A DNA stretch of 64,000 bases from Alphaproteobacteria bacterium (GTDB lineage: Bacteria; Pseudomonadota; Alphaproteobacteria; SHVV01), in the NCBI GenBank assembly GCA_965261735.1, contig OZ253470.1, positions 1,984,001 to 2,048,000 on the forward strand, written 5' to 3'. Every line of letters starts with the position of its first letter. The first letter of the stretch is position 1. Position numbers and translations under genes: made by a program. The notes below the pieces were generated by a model. It did no database searches. It saw only the letters and a list, made by a program, of their open reading frames with translations, and had not been told where the DNA came from. Shown here piece after piece: positions 13,549-63,360 of the stretch.

Positions 13549-15317
<1,769 letters not shown>

Positions 15318-23295: not shown

Positions 23296-23779
23296 GTTGT
23301 TCGCCGACGCGGAATTCTGGGTCGCGGTCGCCTTCGTCATCTTCTTCGCGGCCGTCGGCCGGCTCGCGTTCACCCGCATCACCGCGGCGCTCGACGGTCG
23401 CAGTGCCCGTATCAAGAACGAGCTCGACGAGGCAATGCGCCTGCGCGAAGAGGCCCAGGCCCTGCTCGCGAGCTACCAGCGCAAGCAACGCGACGCGGCT
23501 CGCCAAGCCGAGGAGATCATCGAGCACGCGCGCGAGGAGACGAAGAGAGCTGCGGAACAGGCGGCGCAGGACTTCGATGCCGAGATCGCGCGGCGCGCGC
23601 AGCAGTCGCTTGACCGCATCGCACTGGCCGAGGCGCGGGCGCTACAGGACGTGCGCGATGCCGCCGCCACCCTGGCCATCGCGGCGACACGGCGGCTCAT
23701 CGTCGAGTCCCTCGACGAGAAGCGGGCCGACGCGCTGGTCGACGATGCGCTGGCCGAGGTCGCCGACAAGCTGCACTAA
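23288..23779 (+). CDS. atpF: F0 ATP synthase subunit b
   Basis: AEFWVAVAFVIF, LD.RSARI..ELDEA..LREEAQ; ends KLH; TTG start overlaps the b' stop. Confidence 0.92.
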   Translation: MAELFADAEFWVAVAFVIFFAAVGRLAFTRITAALDGRSARIKNELDEAMRLREEAQALLASYQRKQRDAARQAEEIIEHAREETKRAAEQAAQDFDAEIARRAQQSLDRIALAEARALQDVRDAAATLAIAATRRLIVESLDEKRADALVDDALAEVADKLH

Positions 23780-25152
23780 CAGGCTGCTGAAAAAGTCATC
23801 ATTGCCGGGCCTTGAACTCGGATTCATCGCCGAAATGAAATGAGATTTCGTGTCTTAGGGTGAAACCGTCTTCAATCTCGACCGATCCGATGCCCTGGGC
23901 TTCGTCCAGTTCGATGATCTGCCACTTTGCGGTCAGCGGCGTGCCGGCATCGCCCGTCATGTTGGCGCCTCCGCCAGCAGTCTGGGTAGTCGGACGAGGT
24001 TATAGGCGGCCAAGGCCAGGGTGAACGAAGCGTCGACCCGGTGGCGGCCCCGGAATTTGGTCTTGCTCAATCCCGCGCTCGTCTTGACCCAGCCGAAGAC
24101 CTCCTCGATGCGCTTGCGGCAACGTTGGCTGACGCCGTAACCGGGATGGCGCGTCGTGCGCCCGTCTATCTTGGTCTTGCGCCGCTTGCCGGTCTTGGTG
24201 ACGTGGTCCTGGACGGCGATATGGGGGGTCACCTTGCGGTGCCGCAGTTCCTCGACAAAATCCGCGACGTCAAAACCCTTGTCCCCGCCCACCGTGATCC
24301 GACGCCGCCCGCCTCTACTCTCCACCGGGCGATGCCTGTCGATCAGATCAAGGGCGGCTTCGCGTTCCGCCGTGCCCGACGCAATGGTCACGCCGCCGCC
24401 GACTGCCAGACCATGGCGGTTCTCCGTCAGCGCATGGCCCATGTAACACAGCTTGCTTTCCCGGCCATTACCCTTGCGATAAAGCCGGGCGTCCGGATCA
24501 GTGGTGCTTGCATGGGTCGCGTTCGAGCGTTTCTCGCCATGAAAATCCCGCGCGGCGTTGCGCCCCGATCCCCCGTCGCCATCGTCCTCACCTTTGGGAC
24601 GAAAGCTCTTCATCGACGCCCAGGCCTCGATCAATGTTCCGTCTACCGAAAAATGATCCCGGCTCAATAGTCCCCCTACCTTGTGGTGCTGGATAACCCC
24701 CGCAAGCAGCTGCCCCGAAACCTCCGCCTCCAGAAGACGGTCCCGGTTGTGGCAGAACGCGCTGGCGTCCCACACGCCATCGTCCAGCCCAAGCCCCACA
24801 AACCAGCAAAACAGCATGTTGAAGTTTAGCTGCTCCATCAGCTGACGCTCCGAGCGGATCGAATAAAACGCCTGCAACAGTAACGCTCGAAGAAGCTTCT
24901 CCGGCGGGATCGATGGGCGACCCATGTGGGAATAAAGCGTCTCGAACTCCGAAGATAGAGACCCCAATACGTCGTTCACGATCTCACGGATCAGACGCAG
25001 CGGATGATCATCCGGAACACGCTCTTCCAAGTCTACGTAGCTGAATAAATTGCCACTGCTTTGATCTCGACCCCGCATGCCATCCTCCATCACTCGAAGA
25101 AATCACAGAATCATGTCACAACTGCAAAGGCGAGGACTTTTTCAGCAGCCTG
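23780..25152 (-). mobile_element. IS5-family element, complete, with CTAA target duplication
   Basis: 18-bp perfect terminal IRs CAGGCTGCTGAAAAAGTC / GACTTTTTCAGCAGCCTG; CTAA at 23776-23779 and 25153-25156. Confidence 0.96.
23957..25078 (-). CDS. IS5-family DDE transposase
   Basis: MRG..LFSYVDLEERVPDDHPLR, GRPSIPPE, FSVDGTLIEAWAS, GDKGFD, RKRIEEVFGW. Confidence 0.95.
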   Translation of the reverse strand: MRGRDQSSGNLFSYVDLEERVPDDHPLRLIREIVNDVLGSLSSEFETLYSHMGRPSIPPEKLLRALLLQAFYSIRSERQLMEQLNFNMLFCWFVGLGLDDGVWDASAFCHNRDRLLEAEVSGQLLAGVIQHHKVGGLLSRDHFSVDGTLIEAWASMKSFRPKGEDDGDGGSGRNAARDFHGEKRSNATHASTTDPDARLYRKGNGRESKLCYMGHALTENRHGLAVGGGVTIASGTAEREAALDLIDRHRPVESRGGRRRITVGGDKGFDVADFVEELRHRKVTPHIAVQDHVTKTGKRRKTKIDGRTTRHPGYGVSQRCRKRIEEVFGWVKTSAGLSKTKFRGRHRVDASFTLALAAYNLVRLPRLLAEAPT

Positions 25153-25176
25153 CTAAACCGCATTCTCGGATCGTTG

Positions 25177-25205
25177 GTAGGGGCGGGTTTGAAACCCGCC
25201 CCTAC
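25177..25205. repeat. GTAG-type REP-like palindrome
   Basis: GTAGGGGCGGGTTT-G-AAACCCGCCCCTAC is a perfect 14-bp inverted repeat between convergent transcription units. Confidence 0.75.
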
Positions 25206-25235: not shown

Positions 25236-26264
25236 CTATAGCATGTAGCGCCGCTCGTCTGCGCTGGCCTGCGCGATGTGGTCGAAGCCGGGCTCACGCT
25301 CGGCATAGAACTCGACCCGCATGCCGTCGGGATCCTCGAGGAAGATGCTGCGCTTGGCCGCGTTGTCGACCTCGCGGTCGATGCCGTGGCCCAGCGCCGC
25401 GAGCCGCTCGGCCGCGGCGGCGAAGTCGGACTCGTCGGCGAGCTCGAGCGAGTTGTGGTGCATGTGCGACTCTTCACCGGACTTGGCCTGAATGAGCGCG
25501 GTATCGTACGCCGAGTTCTTGCCGTGCAGGCACATCCAGCTGCGGTCCGCAGCCTCGGCCGCGACGCCGAGCCCGAGCACGTTGGTGTAGAAGTCGATCA
25601 TCCGCTCCATCTGCTGCACGACCAGGACGATGCGGCTGATGCGGCGGGGCCGGAACGGTGCCCCCGGCACCACCGCCACCGGCGGCGTCGGATCCCAGAA
25701 TGTCTCTTTCGTCGGCTCCTTGGAGAGCGGCTCCCAGCCGCCGCTGATCAAGCCGGTGATGTCACCGCCGAGGATCGAGCGCCAGTCGGTGGTCATGTCG
25801 GCGTACATCTCGTGGAGGAACCCTTCCGGGTCGAAGATGTAGATGCTGTGGGTTGTCTGATGGTCAGTGAGACGGTGTAGCGGGAGGTCGGCCGCGCTCG
25901 CCCGCTTGTACGCTTCAACCAGCTCGTACTCGTTCTCCATCTCCCAGCCGAAATGGTTGAGGCCGGCCTTGAGCCCGCGGCCCTTGTGGAGCTGCACATG
26001 GCCGTCGCGGCCGCGCCTCTCCTGGCCGTCCGGGGAGACCCGCACCAGGCCGTAGTCGTGGTGGGTGTTGCCGTTGCTGATAAAGATCGCCGGAATCGCC
26101 ATCTCGCAGCCAATCTCCTCGACGCCGCACACGTTGGTGTAGAACTCGGCCGAGCGGAACACGTCGGTGACGAAGACGTTGGCGTGACCGATGCGCCGTG
26201 GCGAGAATTTGATCGCGGCAAAGGACTCGGCCTTGGGCATGTGGTCCAGATAATTCACGCTCAT
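25236..26264 (-). CDS. VOC-family protein, extradiol ring-cleavage dioxygenase-like
   Basis: RIGHANVFV, GNTHHDYGL, GLNHFGWE, DHQTTHSIYIFDPEGFLHEMY; second VOC domain SIFLEDPDGMRVEFY. Confidence 0.85.
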   Translation of the reverse strand: MSVNYLDHMPKAESFAAIKFSPRRIGHANVFVTDVFRSAEFYTNVCGVEEIGCEMAIPAIFISNGNTHHDYGLVRVSPDGQERRGRDGHVQLHKGRGLKAGLNHFGWEMENEYELVEAYKRASAADLPLHRLTDHQTTHSIYIFDPEGFLHEMYADMTTDWRSILGGDITGLISGGWEPLSKEPTKETFWDPTPPVAVVPGAPFRPRRISRIVLVVQQMERMIDFYTNVLGLGVAAEAADRSWMCLHGKNSAYDTALIQAKSGEESHMHHNSLELADESDFAAAAERLAALGHGIDREVDNAAKRSIFLEDPDGMRVEFYAEREPGFDHIAQASADERRYML

Positions 26265-26389
26265 CGTCCATCCTCCAGAATTTCGGGGTCACGCCGTGGT
26301 CGGCGGCAGGCGCTCGCGCCGCGCCTCTTGATGCCGCCATTATGGGGCGCCGGTCGGCGTTGTCCAGCCGCGCCTGCACCGACCAGCGC

Positions 26390-26422
26390 AAAAAAAGACG
26401 GCGGCTCCAAGGAACCGCCGTC
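26390..26422 (-). terminator. Rho-independent terminator
   Basis: Minus strand GACGGCGGTTCC-TT-GGAGCCGCCGTC followed by T7. Confidence 0.85.
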
Positions 26423-26575
26423 TGGGTCCGTAGAGGGGGGATCTACGAGACCGGCGCTGCCCGCAACGGCCGGGGAGACCGCAATGAAACAGCGCGAGCG
26501 TGCTGCCTCAGGTTGGGGTCGGTGCGGGCCGCCGTTGACCGGCCGCTCTCCCCACCTCACCCGAAGCCTTACATC
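26390..26575 (-). ncRNA. Candidate sigma54-dependent small RNA or attenuator leader, about 185 nt
   Basis: Bounded by a -24/-12 promoter and an intrinsic terminator; hairpins with C-rich loops; no convincing ORF. Confidence 0.6.
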
Positions 26576-26586
26576 GGTGTATTTAA

Positions 26587-26601
26587 GCAATTACCACGCC
26601 A
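26587..26601 (-). promoter_or_regulatory. Sigma54 (-24/-12) promoter
   Basis: TGGCGTGGTAATTGC(T) with exact GG-N10-GC spacing; AT-rich IHF-like site TTTCAATGGTTTA at about 26620-26632; palindrome GTGTA-N9-TACAC at 26767-26785. Confidence 0.7.
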
Positions 26602-26856
26602 ACCTTTATTTCTCCTTTATTTCAATGGTTTAGGTCCGCCGCGCCGGGGCGGCGTCGCACCGAGTGTAAATATTTCTGACGCTCGGGCGCGAGCCCCATG
26701 GCGGCGATCGACGCCTAAGTCCCTTTCACGAAGCGTTTTTTCCGTAGCGCGGCCATAATCGGTCGGGTGTAGGCGAGCTTTACACAATGGGGCGACCGCA
26801 CGCGCCTCAATGGCCTCGGGCGGGCGGAGAACGGGGTGGGCCCGCGCTCCGGGCGG

Positions 26857-28359
26857 CTACTCGGCGGCCGCGCTCGGCGCCGGCGGGTGCCAGCGCAGGA
26901 CCGGACGGCGCGCGGCGCGGGCCTCGTCGAGCCGACGCCGCGGCGCGAAGCGCGGCGCTTCAGTAAATCTTTCGGTATCGCCCTCGGCGGCACTCTTGGC
27001 GAGGGCCCGCAGCGTCGCGATGAAGTGGTCGAGACTCTCCTTCGACTCGCTCTCCGTCGGCTCCGTGAGCAGCGCGCCGTGGACGACGAGCGGAAAATAG
27101 ATGGTCATCGGATGGTAGCCCTCGTCGATCATCGCCTTCGCGAAGTCGAGCGTCGTGACCCCGCTTCCCGTGAGGAAGCGATCGTCGAACAGCGCCTCGT
27201 GCATGCAAGGCCCGGAATAAGCCGGCGTCATGACATCGCCGAGCCGCACCATCACGTAGTTGGCCGCGAGCACCGCGTCCTCCGCAACCTGCCTGAGCCC
27301 GTCCGCACCGTGGCTCATCATGTAGGCGAGCGCGCGCACGAACATGCCCATCTGGCCGTGGAAGCCCTTCATGCGGCCGAACGATTCACCCTCGGCGTGC
27401 TCGACCAGGGTCAATCCGTGCGCATCGCGCGCCACCCACGGTACTGGGGCGTAGGGCGCCAGCGCCGCCGAGAACGCCACCGGGCCGCTACCGGGCCCGC
27501 CGCCGCCATGCGGCGTCGAGAAGGTCTTGTGGAGATTGAGGTGCATGGCGTCGACGCCGAGATCGCCGGGCCGCACGCGACCGACGAGCGCGTTGAAGTT
27601 GGCGCCGTCGCAGTAGAGGAAAGCGCCGGCCGCGTGCGTCGCCTCGGCGACCTCGAGGATCTCGTTCTCGAACAGTCCGCACGTGTTGGGGTTGGTCAGC
27701 ATGATCGCGGCGACGTCGGGGCCGAGCTTGGCCCTGACGGCCCCAAGATCGATGCGTCCCCGTTTGTCGCTTGGCACCGAATCGACGGTGTAGCCGCAGT
27801 GCGCCGCCGTGGCCGGGTTCGTGCCATGCGCCGAATCGGGCGCGAGCACGCGCGAGCGCGCATCGCCGCGGTCCTCGAGGGCGGCTCGGATCGCCATCAT
27901 GCCGCACAGCTCGCCGTGGGCGCCGGCGGCCGGGGCCATCGCCACCGCGGGCATACCCGTCAGCGTCTTGAGCCAGCCGCCGAGCGCGTCGATGAGGCCG
28001 AGCGCGCCCTGCACGGTCGAGACCGGCTGCAGCGGGTGTATGTCGGCGAAACCGGGGAGCCGGGCGAGCGCCTCGCCGAGCCGCGGATTGTGCTTCATCG
28101 TGCACGAGCCGAGCGGGTACAGGCCGGCGTCGATGGCGTAGTTCATCCGGCTCAGGCGCACGAAATGACGAACGACCTGGGGCTCGGCGAGCCCCGGCAA
28201 CTCGACCGGCCGGTGGCGGCCGAGCCCACCGAGACGCTCGGCAAACGGCATCGGCTCCGGGACATCGACGCCGCTGCGGCCCGGCTTGTGCTGCTCGAAG
28301 AGCAGGGGCTCCTCGAGATCGAGGCCGCGGTTGCCGGAAAAGGTTGCGGGCGCCGCCAT
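26857..28359 (-). CDS. gcvPB: Glycine dehydrogenase subunit 2
   Basis: YPLGSCTMKHNPR, PAAGAHGE, SAHGTNPA, HLNLHKTFSTPHGGGGPG, EPTESESKE. Confidence 0.97.
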   Translation of the reverse strand: MAAPATFSGNRGLDLEEPLLFEQHKPGRSGVDVPEPMPFAERLGGLGRHRPVELPGLAEPQVVRHFVRLSRMNYAIDAGLYPLGSCTMKHNPRLGEALARLPGFADIHPLQPVSTVQGALGLIDALGGWLKTLTGMPAVAMAPAAGAHGELCGMMAIRAALEDRGDARSRVLAPDSAHGTNPATAAHCGYTVDSVPSDKRGRIDLGAVRAKLGPDVAAIMLTNPNTCGLFENEILEVAEATHAAGAFLYCDGANFNALVGRVRPGDLGVDAMHLNLHKTFSTPHGGGGPGSGPVAFSAALAPYAPVPWVARDAHGLTLVEHAEGESFGRMKGFHGQMGMFVRALAYMMSHGADGLRQVAEDAVLAANYVMVRLGDVMTPAYSGPCMHEALFDDRFLTGSGVTTLDFAKAMIDEGYHPMTIYFPLVVHGALLTEPTESESKESLDHFIATLRALAKSAAEGDTERFTEAPRFAPRRRLDEARAARRPVLRWHPPAPSAAAE

Positions 28360-29702
28360 CACAGGACCTCGCGCAGGCCGGCGGCGAGGGTGTCGATGTC
28401 GGCCGCCGTCGTCATTTCGGTTGCCGCGACCAGCAGCAGATCGGCGAGCTCGGGCAGGTCCGGGTAGAGCCTGGAGACCGGCACGCCGGCAAGAATACCG
28501 CGCGCCGCCAGGGCCTCGACCGCGGGCGCGGCAGGGCCCGCGAGACGCACCGTCAGCTCGTTGAAGAAGCTCTCGTTGAGGACCTCGACGCCGGGCACCC
28601 CGGCGAGCGCATCGGCGAGTGCAACCGCGGCGGCGTGGTTGGCGCGGGCGAGTCGCTCGAGCCCTTCGCCGCCCAGCAGCGCCATGTGAATACAGAAGGC
28701 CAACGCGCACAGGCCCGAGTTGGTGCAGATGTTGCTCGTCGCCTTTTCGCGGCGGATGTGCTGCTCGCGCGTGGCCAACGTCAGCACGTAGCCGCGCCGC
28801 CCGTCGGCGTCCACGGTCTCGCCGCACAGGCGTCCCGGCATCTGGCGGGCGTAGGCCACGCGGGTGGCGAACAGGCCGAGATGGGGGCCACCGAAATTGA
28901 GCGAATTGCCGATCGGCTGGCCCTCCCCGGCGACGATGTCGGCACCCATCTCGCCCGGCGGCACGACGGCGCCGAGGGCGACCGGCTCGGTCACGACGAC
29001 GATCAACAGCGCGCCCGCGCCGTGGCACGCCGCGGCGAGCGGACGCAGATCGCACAGGCGGCCGAACATGTCGGGGTACTGAACGACCACGCACGAGATC
29101 GCGTCGTCGATGCGGGCGCCGAAGTCCTCGACGCCGCGCCAGTCGGGAGGCTCGAGCTCCACCGCGAGGTTCATGAAGGTGGCCGCCGTGCGCGTCACCT
29201 CGCGGTAGTGCGCGTGCAGTCCACCGGACAGGATCGCGGAGCGCCGCTTGTTGAGGCGGTGCGCCATCAACACGGCCTCGGCGCAGGCCGTGGCGCCGTC
29301 GTACATCGAGGCGTTGGCCACCTCCATGCCGGTGATGACGGCGACCTGGGTTTGAAACTCGAACAGATACTGCAGCGTCCCTTGGCTGATCTCGGGCTGG
29401 TAGGGCGTATAGGAAGTGAGGAACTCGCTGCGTTGAATGAGATGGTCGACCGCGGCCGGCACGTGGTGGCGATAGGCGCCGGCGCCGAGGAAAAAGGGTG
29501 CCGAGCCGGCCGTGATGCTGTCCGCCGCGTACGCGGCGATGGAGCGGCCGACGTTCATCTCATCGGCGTGGAGCGGGAGGTCGAGCAGCCCGTCGAGGCG
29601 AGCACCTTCGGGCACGTCGCAAAACAGCTCGTCGATCGATGCCGCACCGACGGCGGCCAGCATGTCTTGGCGGTCGGCATCGGTCAGCGGCAGGTAGCGC
29701 AT
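28359..29702 (-). CDS. gcvPA: Glycine dehydrogenase subunit 1
   Basis: [46 protein letters not shown]. Confidence 0.97.
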
Positions 29703-31247: not shown

Positions 31248-31458
31248 AGCCCCCTCTGTCGTCGGACCTGAAAGATTGACCCGCTGGCGCTCGCGCGCCC
31301 TCGGGCTTGCCCCTTCGGTGAGGCGCGCCGCCAACGGCCTCGCGCCTGCTTTCCAGAGTGCCATCCCCTTGCGGTCCCGGTGCCTGAGAGTTTCCGGGGC
31401 GGTTGCTCCTTCGGCGCCGGCGCAGCGCGAGCAGCCCGCCGGTCTCTCCCGCAAAGAT
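31248..31458 (-). ncRNA. Tandem glycine riboswitch
   Basis: GGGAGAG...CGCCGAAGGAGCAA...GGAAACTCTCAGG then CTCTGGAAAG...CACCGAAGGGGCAA...ATCTTTCAGG...GACAGAGGGG, directly upstream of gcvT. Confidence 0.95.
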
Positions 31459-31613
31459 CAACTGTATGGTCGGCCGCGCTCATGCACCCGATGACGGCAT
31501 GATAGTGGACCGCCCCGGCGAGTCAACTGAGCCTCACGTCGCAGCACGGCAGCATTGACGCCACGGTATCGACGTTTCACTGTCGCGTCCGTGGCCAGTA
31601 CGCGAGGCGGACG

Positions 31614-45226: not shown

Positions 45227-45302
45227 GTCCCCTTCGTCTAGCGGCCTAGGACATCGCCCTCTCACGGCGAAAACAGGGGTTCGATTCCCCTAGGGGACGC
45301 CA
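45227..45302 (+). tRNA. tRNA-Glu(CTC)
   Basis: GTCCCCT/AGGGGAC acceptor stem, anticodon loop CT-CTC-AC, GGTTCGATTCC T-arm, encoded CCA. Confidence 0.97.
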
Positions 45303-45322
45303 ATCATTTCAATGGGTTGGTT

Positions 45323-46756
45323 GATCGTGTCCCGCGGAGTGGTGTAAGAGCGTTGCGCTCTACGCGGCTCCCGGCGGGTAGGGCCGGGACGTTCAGGCTG
45401 CCACGGTGGGCAGCGTGATGGGGACACCATCGCTCAGCGGAGCGATGGATTCCAGCGTCATGTATCTCCTTGAGACGGCCCACTCGTCGTTCTGCTCGAG
45501 AAGGATGGCGCCGACGAGCCGTGTGATGGCGGCTTCGTTGGGAAAGATACCGACGACGTTGGTGCGACGCTTGACCTCGGCATGGAGCCGTTCGATCGGG
45601 TTTGTGGAGTGCAATTTCTGGCGGTGCTCCCTGGGGAAGCTCATGTAGGCGAGGACGTCGTGCTCGGCTTCGTCCATGAGAACTGCCAGCTTGGGCACCT
45701 TGGGCCTGAGCTGGTCGGCGACCTGGCGCCACTGGACCTTCGCGCTGTCGGCGTCCTCCTGGGCGAAGGCGGTGGCGACGCGCCGGCCCTGGCGGCCGGC
45801 ATGGGCCAGCAGGTTGCGGGCGAAGTGTACGCGGCAGCGCTGCCATGTGGCGCCGAGGATCCGGGTCGCGGCGGCCTTCAGGCCCTTGTGGTCGTCGGAG
45901 ATCACCAGCTTCACGCCGCGCAGCCCGCGCCGGGCCAGCGAGCGCAGGAATTCGGTCCAGAAGGTCTCGGCCTCCGACGCGCCGATCGCCACGCCCAGGA
46001 CCTCGCGGCGGCCTTGGTCGTTGACGGCCACAGCCACGGTCACCGCGACCGAGACGATGCGTCCGGTCTGGCGCACCTTCACGTAGGTGGCGTCGAGCCA
46101 CAGATAGGGCCAGTCGCCCTCCAGCGGTCGATCGAGGAAGCCGTTGACCTTATCGTCGATCTCGCCGCACAGCCTGGAGACCTGGCTCTTGGAGGCGCCC
46201 GACATCCCCATCGCCTGAACCAGATCGTCAACCGAGCGGGTCGACACCCCCTGGATGTAGGCCTCCTGGATCACCGCAGCCAGCGCCTTCTCGGCCATCC
46301 GCCGCGGCTCCAGGAAGCCCGGGAAGTAGCTTCCCTTCCTCAGCTTCGGGATCTTCAGCTCGACCGTGCCGGCCCGCGTCTCCCAGGACCGGTCGCGGTA
46401 GCCGTTGCGATGGGTGATACGATCCGCCGAGCGCTCGCCGTGCCCGGCGCCGGTCAGGCCCTCAACCTCCAGTGCCATCAGCCGCTCGGCCGTGAAGCCG
46501 ATCATCTCGCAAAGCAGATCGGCATCGGAGCTCTTCTCCAAAAGCGCGCGCAGGGTCATCATGTCCTGGGTCATCGTGGTTCTCCTTCGGGTCAGGTTGG
46601 TTTGCACTAGCCCAACCCTAAACCGGAACCGCGATGGCCTCCGCTGTGGATAGCCGGCTTGCCTACGCCAGACTCTCGGCGGTCGCTACGGCAAGCCGCC
46701 TACCCACAGCTACCAGAGGCTCCAACAACTCCTACACCACGTCCTGGGACACGACC
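45323..46756 (-). mobile_element. IS256-family element
   Basis: Imperfect terminal IRs GATCGTGTCCCGCGGAGTGGTGTAAGAG / CTCCTACACCACGTCCTGGGACACGACC; no target duplication seen. Confidence 0.9.
45393..46574 (-). CDS. IS256-family (Mutator) transposase
   Basis: [52 protein letters not shown]; possible short in-frame deletion at GRRVATAF. Confidence 0.93.
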
Positions 46757-60032: not shown

Positions 60033-60107
60033 GCGGGCGTAGCTCAGGGGTAGAGCACAACCTTGCCAAGGTTGGGGTCGTGGGTTCGAATCCCATCGCC
60101 CGCTCCA
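60033..60107 (+). tRNA. tRNA-Gly(GCC)
   Basis: GCGGGCG/CGCCCGC acceptor stem, anticodon loop TT-GCC-AA, GGTTCGAATCC, encoded CCA. Confidence 0.97.
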
Positions 60108-60188
60108 ACGTTTCAGAGTAAAAACAAGGCGATTATTAACTTGACATAAGACGCGGTGATCCCCATATCTGGAACATAGGGGGTCACA

Positions 60189-61043
60189 ATGACTACGTTT
60201 TACGAGTTTCAGAAGCAGTTTCCGGACGATGAAGCATGCCTTCACCATATTATGGTCGCGCGTTACGGAAGCACTACGATCGACTGCCCAAAGTGCGGCG
60301 CGTTTGGCAAGTTCTACCGCATGACGAAGGATCGCGGGTACGTATGCCAGCATTGCGGCCACCACCTGCATCCGACGGCCGGGACATTCATGCACCGGAC
60401 GCGCCTGCCTCTGCACAAGTGGTTCTTCGCGATGTTCCTGTTCTCGACCTCGCGCCATGGTGTGGCCGCCAAGGAACTGGAACGCCAGTTGGACGTGTCC
60501 TATCCGACCGCTTGGCGCATGGCTCGGCTGATCCGCGAGCACATGGCGGAGACTGACGGCGAGCACCCGCTTGATGGCGAGGTAGAAGCGGACGAAACCT
60601 ATGTCGGCGGGCGGACAACTGGCGGGAAGCGCGGCCGCGGAGCGCCGAATAAGACAGTCGTATTCGGGATGCTGGAGCGCGACGGCGACGTGATGGCGAA
60701 CGTAGTTCCGAACGTTCGCAAGCGAACCTTGCAGCCAATCGTTATCGAAAACGTGAAGTTGGGTAGCACGATCCATACGGACGAACTGCGGTCCTACTTT
60801 GGTTTGGGACGGGCAGGATACCGGCATGAAACCGTGAACCACAGCGCCGGTGAGTATGTGAGCGGCTCTAGCCATGTGAACGGGATCGAGGGGTTTTGGG
60901 CGCGGCTGAAGCTGTCGATACGCGGGACCCACGTTCACGTTTCCCGGAAGCACCTTCAGAAGTACGTGAAGGAGTTTGAGTATCGCTACAACCGCCGGAA
61001 ACGGCCCGACGCGATCTTCCGTGATCTGGTTTCGAGCTTCTAA
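60189..61043 (+). CDS. IS1595-family transposase (distinct from the 50726 type)
   Basis: CPKC..CQHC, VEADETYVGG, IHTDE, HVNGIEGFW, YVKEFEYRYNRR. Confidence 0.95.
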   Translation: MTTFYEFQKQFPDDEACLHHIMVARYGSTTIDCPKCGAFGKFYRMTKDRGYVCQHCGHHLHPTAGTFMHRTRLPLHKWFFAMFLFSTSRHGVAAKELERQLDVSYPTAWRMARLIREHMAETDGEHPLDGEVEADETYVGGRTTGGKRGRGAPNKTVVFGMLERDGDVMANVVPNVRKRTLQPIVIENVKLGSTIHTDELRSYFGLGRAGYRHETVNHSAGEYVSGSSHVNGIEGFWARLKLSIRGTHVHVSRKHLQKYVKEFEYRYNRRKRPDAIFRDLVSSF

Positions 61044-61112
61044 TCGCCGCGTCCAGAAGAGCGTGAAACCGGCGCCACGTAACATCAAGAGGGTAGTGAT
61101 CATTGTTGGTGG

Positions 61113-61607
61113 TCATTGGCGCCACGTCTGTTCGGACGTTATCTTCTTGGCTTTGCATAAATTACCAGCCGTTGCACAACCCACCATCTTCGGAAGCCAC
61201 CTATACCATTCTTGGCCCTGGCGTGTCTCTGGCGGGTAGATCCCGAATTTCCCCATCTTGTTGGCAAGTGTTTCTGCCTTCGCACTTGTTTCAGCGGACA
61301 TGTGAAAGTAGCTCACCCTGCCGTCGCTGTAACAATTCTCCTGGTGTGCGCTCACCACCTCCATCATCTCCTCAGCTAGAAGCCTGAATCGGCCTGATTT
61401 TGTGAGCCACTTGTGTAGCGGCCACGCGCAGAGAAATAGCCAAACCCCACTAGCAACCATAAGGCCAAACCATATCCCGGGGGCGATGGCCACGTCCTTC
61501 ACCACCATCACCGCTCCAGTGAAAAAGTTGTAGCCGGACGCGGCCAGAAGAAAAAGTGAGAAGACGCCGCCTCGGCGACCACCTCCGATGTTCTTGATCC
61601 ACCCCAT
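61113..61607 (-). CDS. Passenger hypothetical membrane protein (2 TM plus soluble tail)
   Basis: 164-aa ORF inside the IS ends, convergent with the transposase; two hydrophobic segments; lower GC. Confidence 0.6.
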   Translation of the reverse strand: MGWIKNIGGGRRGGVFSLFLLAASGYNFFTGAVMVVKDVAIAPGIWFGLMVASGVWLFLCAWPLHKWLTKSGRFRLLAEEMMEVVSAHQENCYSDGRVSYFHMSAETSAKAETLANKMGKFGIYPPETRQGQEWYRWLPKMVGCATAGNLCKAKKITSEQTWRQ

Positions 61608-62337
61608 CCGCGCAAGGTAGCGAAAACATCACTTAGGTCAACTTGATAATCGCCAAAAACAATGACTAAAAGGGGTCGGCCTAAGCGGAGCTGCCCCTCG
61701 TTTTTCTAGGGAAGCACCGGGGAAGCAGTCGGAAGGAAATTGCGGCCAGCCCCGGCCACCGCAGCACCAGGGCGAAGAGGGGGATTCCTAGGAACGAAAG
61801 AGCTAAAAGCCCCTCCTCCTGGTCGGAACAAACATGGAGTTAAGGGCGCTCCAAGAGGGGGGAAGGCGGTCCTATACCCCTCCGGCGCACGCGCAACAAC
61901 GCAACACTTCGAGGGTCAGGTCACGCAGGCCGCCTCAACAGCCGCCAGGGCCGTGGTCAGCGGCCGCCCTCGTGCACGTGGTTTCGGCGGTCATCGACGA
62001 CAACCGATGACGCTTAAACATGCAAATAGTTTGAGTACCTTAGTCACCGACCCTCACGGTATGCGCGGGTTCGAGTGGACCGAAAGGAGTAACGTCGCGT
62101 TTCGCTCTCATTCGCCCAACACCCGATGTCGTAGCACCTGAAAGTTGGGCGTTTTGCGCACGCTATGGGCTTTTGCACACGTTATTGCCAACGTTTCTCC
62201 GATGAGTCATGCGTTTGTTGGTAGCGACCGTAAATTTCCCATTTGTAACGACCCAAAATTTCTCACTTTGGGCTTGTCGCTGAAGGCGTCCCGGGCCGCT
62301 CTGTTGGCTTTGCCAACAGAGCGGGATCGGTGCGCGG

Positions 62338-63360
62338 ATGTACAAATGGGAGACCAGGATGTTGTTGAAGCACTATCTGGACCGGGGTGTCTCGAAGGCG
62401 GAGCTGTCGAGGCGGTTCGGGGTGAACCGTCGGACGATCCACAATTGGGTCGATACCGGCCAACTGGACCGGGATCTGGCGGCCGGTGCGCGAGGGTATT
62501 CGCCCCGTCCGCCGGTGGCCCACAAGCTGGACCCCTACAAGGCGATCATCGACGCCCGTCTTGAGGCGTTCCCGAAGCTGTCGGCGAAGCGGCTTTTCGA
62601 TGAGGTCCGCGCTGCGGACTACCCGGGCTGCTACTCTCGCGTGAACGACTACGTGCGGGCGACGCGACCGCGCGAACCGGTTGAATCGCTGGTCCGGTTC
62701 GAGACGCCGGCGGGGCGTCAGGGCCAGGTGGACTTCGGTACGTTCACGCTGCCCTGGGGCCGGCGCCATGCCCTGGTGATCGTCCTCGGCTTCACCCGGC
62801 TGCTGTGGCTGCACTTCTATACTCGGCAGACCATGCCGGTCCTGATGGAAGGTCTGGAGAGCGCCTTCGACCGGTTCGGCGGGGTTCCGGAGGAGCTGCT
62901 GTTCGACCAGATGCGCGCCGTGGTGCTGTCCGACGACCGCGGGGCCGGCGGCGGCCTGGTGCTGAACGAGGAGTTTCTGCGGTTCGCCGCGCACTGGGGG
63001 TTCATGCCGCGCTCGTGCCGACCCTATCGGGCCCAGACCAAGGGCAAAGTGGAGCGCCCGATCCGCTACATCCGCGAGAGCTTCTTCTACGGCCGCTCGT
63101 TTGCGAATGACAACGATCTCAACGAACAGGCCGTGCGCTGGCTGGAGGGCACAGCCAACGTCCGCCGGCATGCCACGACCGGGGAGCGTCCTGTCGACCG
63201 CTTCGAGCGCGACGAGCGAGCGGTGCTTCTCCCCTTGGCGAACCATCCCTATCGACGTCTCGGCGTCCGGCATGCTCCGGAGCCCGCGCCGCGGCGACTG
63301 CCGGCAACCGTGAAGGTCGAGCGGCGACCGCTTAGTGTCTATGCGGAGGCGCTGCAATGA
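62338..63360 (+). CDS. istA: IS21 transposase IstA
   Basis: HTH, KLDPYKAII, RFETPAGRQGQVDFG, LFDQM, RAQTKGKVER. Confidence 0.93.
   Translation: MYKWETRMLLKHYLDRGVSKAELSRRFGVNRRTIHNWVDTGQLDRDLAAGARGYSPRPPVAHKLDPYKAIIDARLEAFPKLSAKRLFDEVRAADYPGCYSRVNDYVRATRPREPVESLVRFETPAGRQGQVDFGTFTLPWGRRHALVIVLGFTRLLWLHFYTRQTMPVLMEGLESAFDRFGGVPEELLFDQMRAVVLSDDRGAGGGLVLNEEFLRFAAHWGFMPRSCRPYRAQTKGKVERPIRYIRESFFYGRSFANDNDLNEQAVRWLEGTANVRRHATTGERPVDRFERDERAVLLPLANHPYRRLGVRHAPEPAPRRLPATVKVERRPLSVYAEALQ

Follow-up and report, generated by a model that had tools for sequence, protein, structure and literature searches.

A gap of 592 nucleotides (nt) separates gcvPB from the next gene on the same strand, which encodes a VOC protein, in the chromosome of an alphaproteobacterium, and raises the question of whether this DNA specifies a regulatory RNA of its own and from which promoter such an RNA would be transcribed. 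The gap is located in a stretch of 64,000 nt (assembly GCA_965261735.1, contig OZ253470.1, positions 1,984,001 to 2,048,000), hereafter the window, which has a G+C content (GC) of 67%; all coordinates given below are those of the window. Inside the gap, on the minus strand, lies a predicted non-coding transcript of 186 nt (26390..26575), which is tentatively interpreted as a small regulatory RNA (sRNA) with a free-standing gene of its own, belonging to the C-rich-loop type and probably driven by sigma54. If real, the candidate is plausibly a lineage-restricted sRNA that acts in trans. A sequence-only reading of the same DNA had left the choice between an sRNA and a switchable attenuator of the VOC gene; the former drew support from the non-coding character, strand-specific structure and terminator described below, while the latter fared poorly on both its folding energy and the promoter found between the terminator and the VOC gene.

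The predicted RNA and its structure

The start of the candidate transcript was placed from the C at -12 of a sigma54-type promoter element and its end from the U run of an intrinsic terminator. The RNA folds into four hairpins with a minimum free energy of -97.3 kcal/mol and is almost fully paired, with little exposed besides the hairpin loops, which read GUCAA, UCCCC, UCCCCCC and CUUG in this fold. Stem-loop 1 (SL1; 26505..26567, minus strand) is a long irregular stem with the loop GUCAA, in which a G-rich 5' arm faces a C-rich 3' arm (z = -2.13; 4 of 200 shuffled sequences as stable). It is followed by SL2 (26454..26495, minus strand; z = -2.41, 2/200 shuffles), with the apical loop UCCCC (26476-26472; unpaired probability approximately 0.9-1.0), and by SL3 (26425..26452, minus strand; z = -2.95, 0/200 shuffles), with the apical loop UCCCCCC (26441-26435). 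The SL3 loop is borne on the core CGUAGA-UCCCCCC-UCUACG, which is contained within a longer stem, exactly as had been noted from the sequence; the other loop, previously written as CUCCCC, is one residue shorter, its first C forming part of the C-G closing pair of a 5-nt loop. Both C-rich loops are unpaired with a probability of approximately 0.9 or more. Apical loops with at least four consecutive C residues on stable hairpins, the feature that defines the class of C-rich-loop RNAs, are thus present in both SL2 and SL3, and the two hairpins taken together are more stable than any of their shuffled versions (z = -3.48, 0/200). Adjacent hairpins with C-rich loops were found, under a loose criterion, only five times on both strands of a larger sample of 820,577 bases, the candidate included. 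This sample comprises the window and 80 fetched loci from a genome scan anchored on gcvPB, which returned at least 80 loci with only 62-75% amino-acid identity and may have passed over closer relatives.

The fourth hairpin is an intrinsic terminator, AGACGGCGGUUCC-UUGG-GGAGCCGCCGUCU (26390..26423, minus strand), with a 12-bp stem that includes eight GC pairs, the 4-nt loop UUGG and a run of seven U residues (26396-26390), the first of which is also the last base of the stem. The GC-rich stem-loop followed by a U run that characterises Rho-independent terminators is therefore found at 26423-26390, and its stability (-22 kcal/mol, z = -5.46) marks it as strong. It is the sole terminator-like site in 25900-27200, such sites having a background frequency of 0.16 per strand-kb. 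The RNA of about 185 nt closed by a GC hairpin and seven U residues that was described earlier is present in the sequence.

The fold of the whole RNA (26385-26580) is more stable than expected for its composition (z = -3.39), none of 200 shuffles being as good, and the shuffles themselves average -83 kcal/mol. When the terminator is left out, the body of the RNA retains this property on the minus strand (z = -2.05, 6/200 shuffles as good), whereas the same interval read on the plus strand does not (z = -0.52, 55/200 shuffles), so that the structure is specific to the predicted strand. The region has no coding potential: the open reading frames (ORFs) that overlap it have a GC content at third codon positions (GC3) of 0.63-0.64 and a flat distribution of GC over the codon positions, against a GC3 of 0.78-0.93 in the genes of the window. 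GC drops to 50-62% over 26550-26800.

The promoter region and competing accounts of the locus

Directly upstream of the predicted RNA is a sigma54-type -24/-12 element, TGGCGTGGTAATTGCT (26586..26601, minus strand), which is an exact match to TGGC-N7-TTGCW and has the exact spacing that had been pointed out from the sequence. The GG at -24, the GC at -12 and the fixed spacing between them, by which sigma54 promoters are recognised, all occur at 26601-26586, and the element, which reads TGGCGTG-GTAA-TTGCT, agrees at 10 of the 12 specified positions with the consensus TGGCACG-N4-TTGCW given in an excerpt of PMC4482717. As the C at -12 corresponds to 26587, a sigma54-type start is predicted near G26575. 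The TGGC-N7-TTGCW pattern occurs 11 times in the 820,577 bases, and only the occurrence in front of the candidate has a terminator-like site in the 320 nt after it; the pairing of promoter pattern and terminator is thus rare. A second match within the window (61452-61467, minus strand) lies in a lower-GC stretch beside an integrase-type gene, lacks a terminator in the 320 nt that follow and probably reflects chance. The promoter scan found no sigma70-like site (at least 9/12 matches) upstream of the RNA, suggesting that the promoter would need an activator, and the -24/-12 match makes sigma54 the best of the activator-dependent candidates. Transcription would then begin near 26575 at an activator-dependent promoter, most likely the sigma54-type element at 26601-26586, and would end at the intrinsic terminator at 26423-26390.

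Several further elements are found upstream of the -24/-12 element. An IHF-like site, TTTCAATGGTTTA (26620..26632, plus strand), is centred near -51 and differs by one mismatch from the IHF consensus WATCAANNNNTTR; no other site with one mismatch or fewer is present on either strand of the 255-nt upstream region. The inverted repeat GTGTA-N9-TACAC, seen earlier about 200 nt upstream and proposed as an upstream activating sequence (UAS), is indeed present (26767..26785, minus strand; about -200 from the predicted start). By direct count its spacing is TGT-N11-ACA, which differs from the TGT-N10-ACA of NifA sites, and no established enhancer-binding-protein site could be matched. Missed in the sequence-only reading was a perfect 11-bp tandem repeat in which GAAATAAAGG occurs twice (26603..26623, minus strand; Tandem Repeats Finder period 11, 1.9 copies, 100% matches). 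It occupies -28 to -48, one base upstream of the -24 element, and its copies account for two of the three matches in the window to the 10-mer (one mismatch or fewer), where 0.83 are expected. This repeat could be the site of a direct-repeat regulator or a slippage duplication. Further upstream, the inverted-repeat listing includes a GC-rich hairpin with a CGCCGC-N6-GCGGCG core and no U run (26633..26656, minus strand), which was not scored as a terminator by the scan but might weakly terminate the gcv operon.

A number of observations weigh against a sigma54-driven sRNA. The -24/-12 pattern considered alone is unremarkable, with two occurrences in the window where 0.81 are expected and two or more in 18 of 100 shuffles. 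The dyad proposed as UAS is at chance, at least one AT-rich 5-bp inverted repeat turning up in 453 out of 1000 shuffled versions of the 255-nt upstream sequence, and the claim of a canonical arrangement of UAS, IHF site and sigma54 promoter was overstated, this layout being only partly present. What stands out most upstream is the 11-bp direct repeat (-28 to -48), which lacks the typical dyad form and fits another type of activator. Neither rpoN nor a gene for an enhancer-binding protein was detected in the 64-kb window by Pfam searches of 47 ORFs and a scan of all six frames for signature motifs. No homologue of the RNA was found by blastn or nhmmer in the 80 gcvPB-anchored loci listed, and a covariance model derived from this one sequence recovered only the candidate itself (227 bits) from the 820,577 bases. 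Plasmids likewise contain no DNA match to the candidate region, and target scans within the window yielded no duplex above background.

The results of these searches for relatives can be further specified. The next match of the covariance model (21.5 bits) is the opposite strand of the candidate's own terminator, and the top score in any of the fetched loci is 17.9 bits, with an expectation value (E) of 0.11. Among the 80 loci listed, no -24/-12 pattern is located 3' of gcvPB, save for a palindromic repeat in locus L050. The lineage itself is poorly sampled, given that relatives of the VOC protein outside a cluster of 99% identity reach 52% identity at most. A separate similarity was followed up and rejected: 26442-26473 (minus strand), within SL2 and SL3, matches the antisense of conserved 3' codons of gcvPB in about 12 loci, including L050 (6541-6567), as a relic of gcvPB might. 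The matches are 26-29 nt in length, the best having 90% identity over 29 nt (E 0.002); the organism's own gcvPB gave no blastn match at E of 1 or below, and tblastn returned no meaningful similarity. Unrestricted RNAduplex energies in this comparison are driven by GC content. From these sequence comparisons, the match of the SL2/SL3 segment to gcvPB antisense was judged to be a chance resemblance.

Four other accounts of the locus were weighed against this evidence. It is unlikely that the region represents a long 3' untranslated region of the gcvT-H-PA-PB operon, with the hairpin and its seven U residues serving as the operon terminator, the -24/-12 element arising by chance and any sRNA being processed from the operon transcript. 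The common orientation, the lack of a terminator-like site from the gcvPB stop codon (26857) to 26423 and the non-significance of the -24/-12 pattern alone are all consistent with this account. However, the terminator is situated 467 nt past the gcvPB stop codon, and the hairpin at 26633-26656 could, if it has the role suggested for it, already stop the operon. In addition, the downstream neighbourhoods of the 12 closest listed loci, compared by eye, differ from one another and none (0/12) includes a comparable element, and a 3' untranslated region leaves unexplained why an AT-rich block, a repeat and a -24/-12 element occur about 185 nt before the terminator.

The 11-bp repeat lends itself to an account, considered quite improbable, in which the same small RNA is transcribed from a promoter other than a sigma54 promoter, the repeat binding an OmpR/PhoB-like regulator in front of a sigma70-type promoter with the weak -10 sequence TTAAAT (26585-26580) and no -35. 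Regulators of this type bind 11-bp direct repeats, one helical turn apart, and replace the -35 contact. The repeat, with its period of 11 and 100% identity, abuts the promoter, TTAAAT is found 17 nt downstream of the repeat end, and transcription would begin no more than a few nt from the start predicted for sigma54. Against this, the scan gave no sigma70-like site at 9/12 or better, TTAAAT matches TATAAT at only four of six positions, the -24/-12 match is far better, and a repeat of two copies is also explicable as neutral slippage duplication.

Rather improbable, too, is that the region is non-functional GC-rich intergenic DNA with a chance fold and a chance promoter match. The failure to find a homologue in the loci, by covariance-model search or on plasmids is in keeping with this, as are a lineage-specific neighbourhood that adjoins an insertion sequence (IS) element and the strong folding of GC-rich sequence in general, evident from the shuffle mean. 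It is, however, at odds with the strand specificity of the fold, with a 12-bp terminator stem and seven U residues at the z-score given above, and with a joint promoter-terminator layout in just 1 of the 11 pattern sites.

Finally, it is highly improbable that the RNA is the regulated leader, or attenuator, of the VOC gene, with the sigma54 promoter driving that gene through conditional read-through of the terminator. The start of the VOC gene does lie on the same strand, its ATG at 26264 being 125 nt past the terminator, as the earlier reading had it, and one source gives the name catechol 2,3-dioxygenase to relatives of the VOC protein (38-52% identity). Aromatic catabolism is a well-known target of control by sigma54. 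The attenuator is nonetheless disfavoured because the proposed switch, in which the 5' GGGGAGA pairs with the internal UCUCCCC, has an energy of -87.7 rather than -97.3 kcal/mol (a cost of 9.6 kcal/mol) and leaves the terminator intact (pair probabilities 0.87-1.0), and because the VOC gene has a sigma70-like promoter of its own past the terminator, TGGACA-16-CATAAT (26339..26366, minus strand; 10/12 matches), which is the sole such site in 25900-27200 where 0.1 are expected in shuffles. Furthermore, the terminator is not outcompeted by any upstream segment: the best duplex with its 3' arm reaches -21 kcal/mol and involves bases already taken up in SL1, whereas the terminator hairpin has -22 kcal/mol. 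Nor was any riboswitch or other cis-regulatory Rfam family matched in the region.

Neighbouring genes and mobile elements

The upstream neighbour of the candidate, gcvPB (26857..28467, minus strand), is the last gene of a gcvT-gcvH-gcvPA-gcvPB operon which extends on the minus strand from 31454 to 26857 and is supported by Pfam matches at gcvPB. The operon is under the control of a tandem glycine riboswitch (31252-31461, minus strand; Rfam scores of 72.4 and 35.9 bits for the two aptamers), which precedes gcvT in the usual arrangement. The downstream neighbour, the VOC gene (25236..26264, minus strand), lies outside the RNA and encodes a two-domain VOC/extradiol-dioxygenase-like protein of 342 amino acids, with Pfam Glyoxalase matches in two stretches. 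This protein falls under all NCBIfam cut-offs and is without an NCBIfam equivalog, and no PDB sequence matches it at 1e-5. Its close relatives form one cluster of 99% identity (six member sequences on three contigs), relatives encoded on plasmids reach 32% identity at most, and only one weak match to a VOC gene 3' of gcvPB was obtained in the 80 related loci. Judged by these sequence relationships, the VOC protein is a lineage-specific enzyme.

Just past the VOC stop codon (25177-25205) is an inverted repeat whose 14-bp arms match perfectly and are 1 nt apart (GTAGGGGCGGGTTT / AAACCCGCCCCTAC), and this hairpin is likely a terminator. Between it and atpF' sits an IS5-family element (23777-25155), which encodes a DDE transposase of 378 amino acids and is bounded by 24-nt terminal inverted repeats that are 92% complementary; plasmid copies are 70-86% identical to it over 4-46% of its length. 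Beyond the IS5-family element, the atpI-B-E-F-F' genes approach from the opposite direction. Elsewhere in the window, two ORFs on the plus strand share between them a CcrM-like N6/N4 DNA methyltransferase that has a RAMA domain (14214-14660 and 14709-15317); they cover Pfam profile positions 1-101 and 144-221 in separate frames. The split could reflect a frameshift, a pseudogene or an assembly error. Two tRNA genes (in 45227-46700 and 60033-63360) each adjoin mobile-element genes, coding for an IS256/Mutator-family transposase and an rve integrase, respectively, and these sites could be island insertion points.

Relation to known RNA families and proposed role

Searches of the whole window with Rfam at gathering thresholds gave four matches, two to glycine riboswitch aptamers and two to tRNAs, none of them in the candidate region, while a search of 26200-26900 at E of 10 or below added seven sub-threshold matches, none credible. 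The best of these is 6C (RF01066; 26.1 bits, E 0.31, against a gathering score of 47), alongside suhB/MmgR, also termed alpha-r8 (RF00519; 18.8 bits, E 0.27, against 41), which covers 26384-26456 only, and alpha-r7 (RF02342; 17.2 bits, E 0.52, against 60). The scores of all three are carried by SL3 and the terminator. No match to alpha-r14-type Rfam families or to sX13 was obtained at E of 10 or below. As the RNA falls below the Rfam gathering scores and does not contain the cuckoo motif CCUCCUCCC, it is outside all of the described families tested. The novelty attributed to it from sequence holds only in the sense that no Rfam family is reached at threshold, and, as the sequence-only reading had it, the RNA is not an exact match to cuckoo/alpha-r14 or suhB/MmgR.

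The candidate shares C-rich loops with several of these RNAs in varying degrees. The cuckoo RNAs (alpha-r14/CcsR/RSs0680), as described in an excerpt of PMC4615179, consist of two to four adjacent hairpins with CCUCCUCCC in each loop, the loops being 9-27 nt in length in the family model, and RSs0680a-d are under RpoHI/HII control and share their transcript with a small gene. The cuckoo RNAs resemble the candidate in being alphaproteobacterial sRNAs of adjacent hairpins with a C-rich anti-Shine-Dalgarno motif in the loops, but, going by that excerpt, the candidate is set apart by its lack of CCUCCUCCC and by loops of only 5 and 7 nt. MmgR of Sinorhizobium meliloti, according to the part of PMC7143759 drawn on here, is an RNA of 77 nt with an anti-Shine-Dalgarno motif and a terminator; NtrC induces its transcription, and its promoter carries predicted motifs for both RpoD and RpoN. 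It is like the candidate an alphaproteobacterial RNA of trans-acting type with a C-rich anti-Shine-Dalgarno motif and an intrinsic terminator, but measures 77 nt, in contrast to about 186 nt with four hairpins. In the suhB model the C-rich motif is unpaired in front of the terminator hairpin, whereas in the candidate it is located in the loop of SL3, and only the C-rich motif and terminator of the candidate resemble the suhB/MmgR model.

Closest to the candidate in loop sequence and proposed mechanism is sX13 of Xanthomonas, likewise highly structured, a 115-nt RNA with three C-rich loops (CCCC/CCCCC) which repress mRNAs that have GGGG motifs close to their start codons (PMC3771888, in excerpt). 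It differs in being gammaproteobacterial, in its length of 115 nt and in its three C-rich loops, and the excerpted text mentions no sigma54 promoter. The 6C RNA of the Actinobacteria, as outlined in an excerpt of PMC6486639, consists of a pair of hairpins and binds several mRNAs through its C-rich loops. It belongs to another phylum, and the second hairpin of the 6C model was aligned to the terminator of the candidate. Together with RNAIII, sX13 and 6C make up the functional class of C-rich-loop RNAs, with which the candidate shares apical loops of at least four C residues.

The architecture seen in sX13, 6C and, with another motif, in cuckoo/CcsR and MmgR suggests an sRNA that acts in trans through loops complementary to G-rich ribosome-binding regions. 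If the candidate works as these four RNAs do, its loops UCCCC and UCCCCCC would be the seeds for base-pairing with G-rich or Shine-Dalgarno sequences in mRNAs, whose translation would be reduced. GGGG is present in 9 of the 48 start regions in the window. One specific pairing, between SL2 and the glycine-riboswitch leader, gave a duplex of -26.3 kcal/mol and was discarded as chance, 198 of 5096 window segments doing as well.

With respect to its promoter, the candidate would join the sigma54-dependent sRNAs, among which are Qrr, GlmY and CrcZ. NrsZ and GlnZ are further RpoN-dependent sRNAs (PMC9731577, in excerpt), and in RNAs of this type, as in the role proposed for the candidate, an enhancer-dependent promoter relays a signal sensed by the activator to the post-transcriptional level. 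All five differ from the candidate in that they occur in Gammaproteobacteria, have other sequences and seeds and have known activators. In S. meliloti, RpoN motifs are predicted upstream of 112 start sites, as reported in the excerpt of PMC3616915. Met2624 of Methylorubrum was also considered; according to the excerpted preprint it has a predicted sigma54 promoter and no intrinsic terminator, and no link to the candidate was drawn.

A fuller version of the proposal, which must be regarded as doubtful, envisages a sigma54-driven sRNA with two C-rich seed loops in a barely sampled lineage, which would convey the signal of an activator to mRNAs with G-rich ribosome-binding sites, with the 11-bp repeat as a second input and read-through from the gcv operon as a second source of the RNA. 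The RNA remains a candidate and would be unsurprising to a specialist. Since sigma54-driven and C-rich-loop sRNAs are both established, the gain lies in a new example from an uncultured lineage and not in a new principle. If real, the RNA would be a sigma54-linked riboregulator from the Alphaproteobacteria, where the excerpted sources supply as precedents only MmgR together with a few sRNAs of S. meliloti for which RpoN motifs are predicted, and it would represent a further instance in which unrelated lineages have come to use C-rich loops as seeds.

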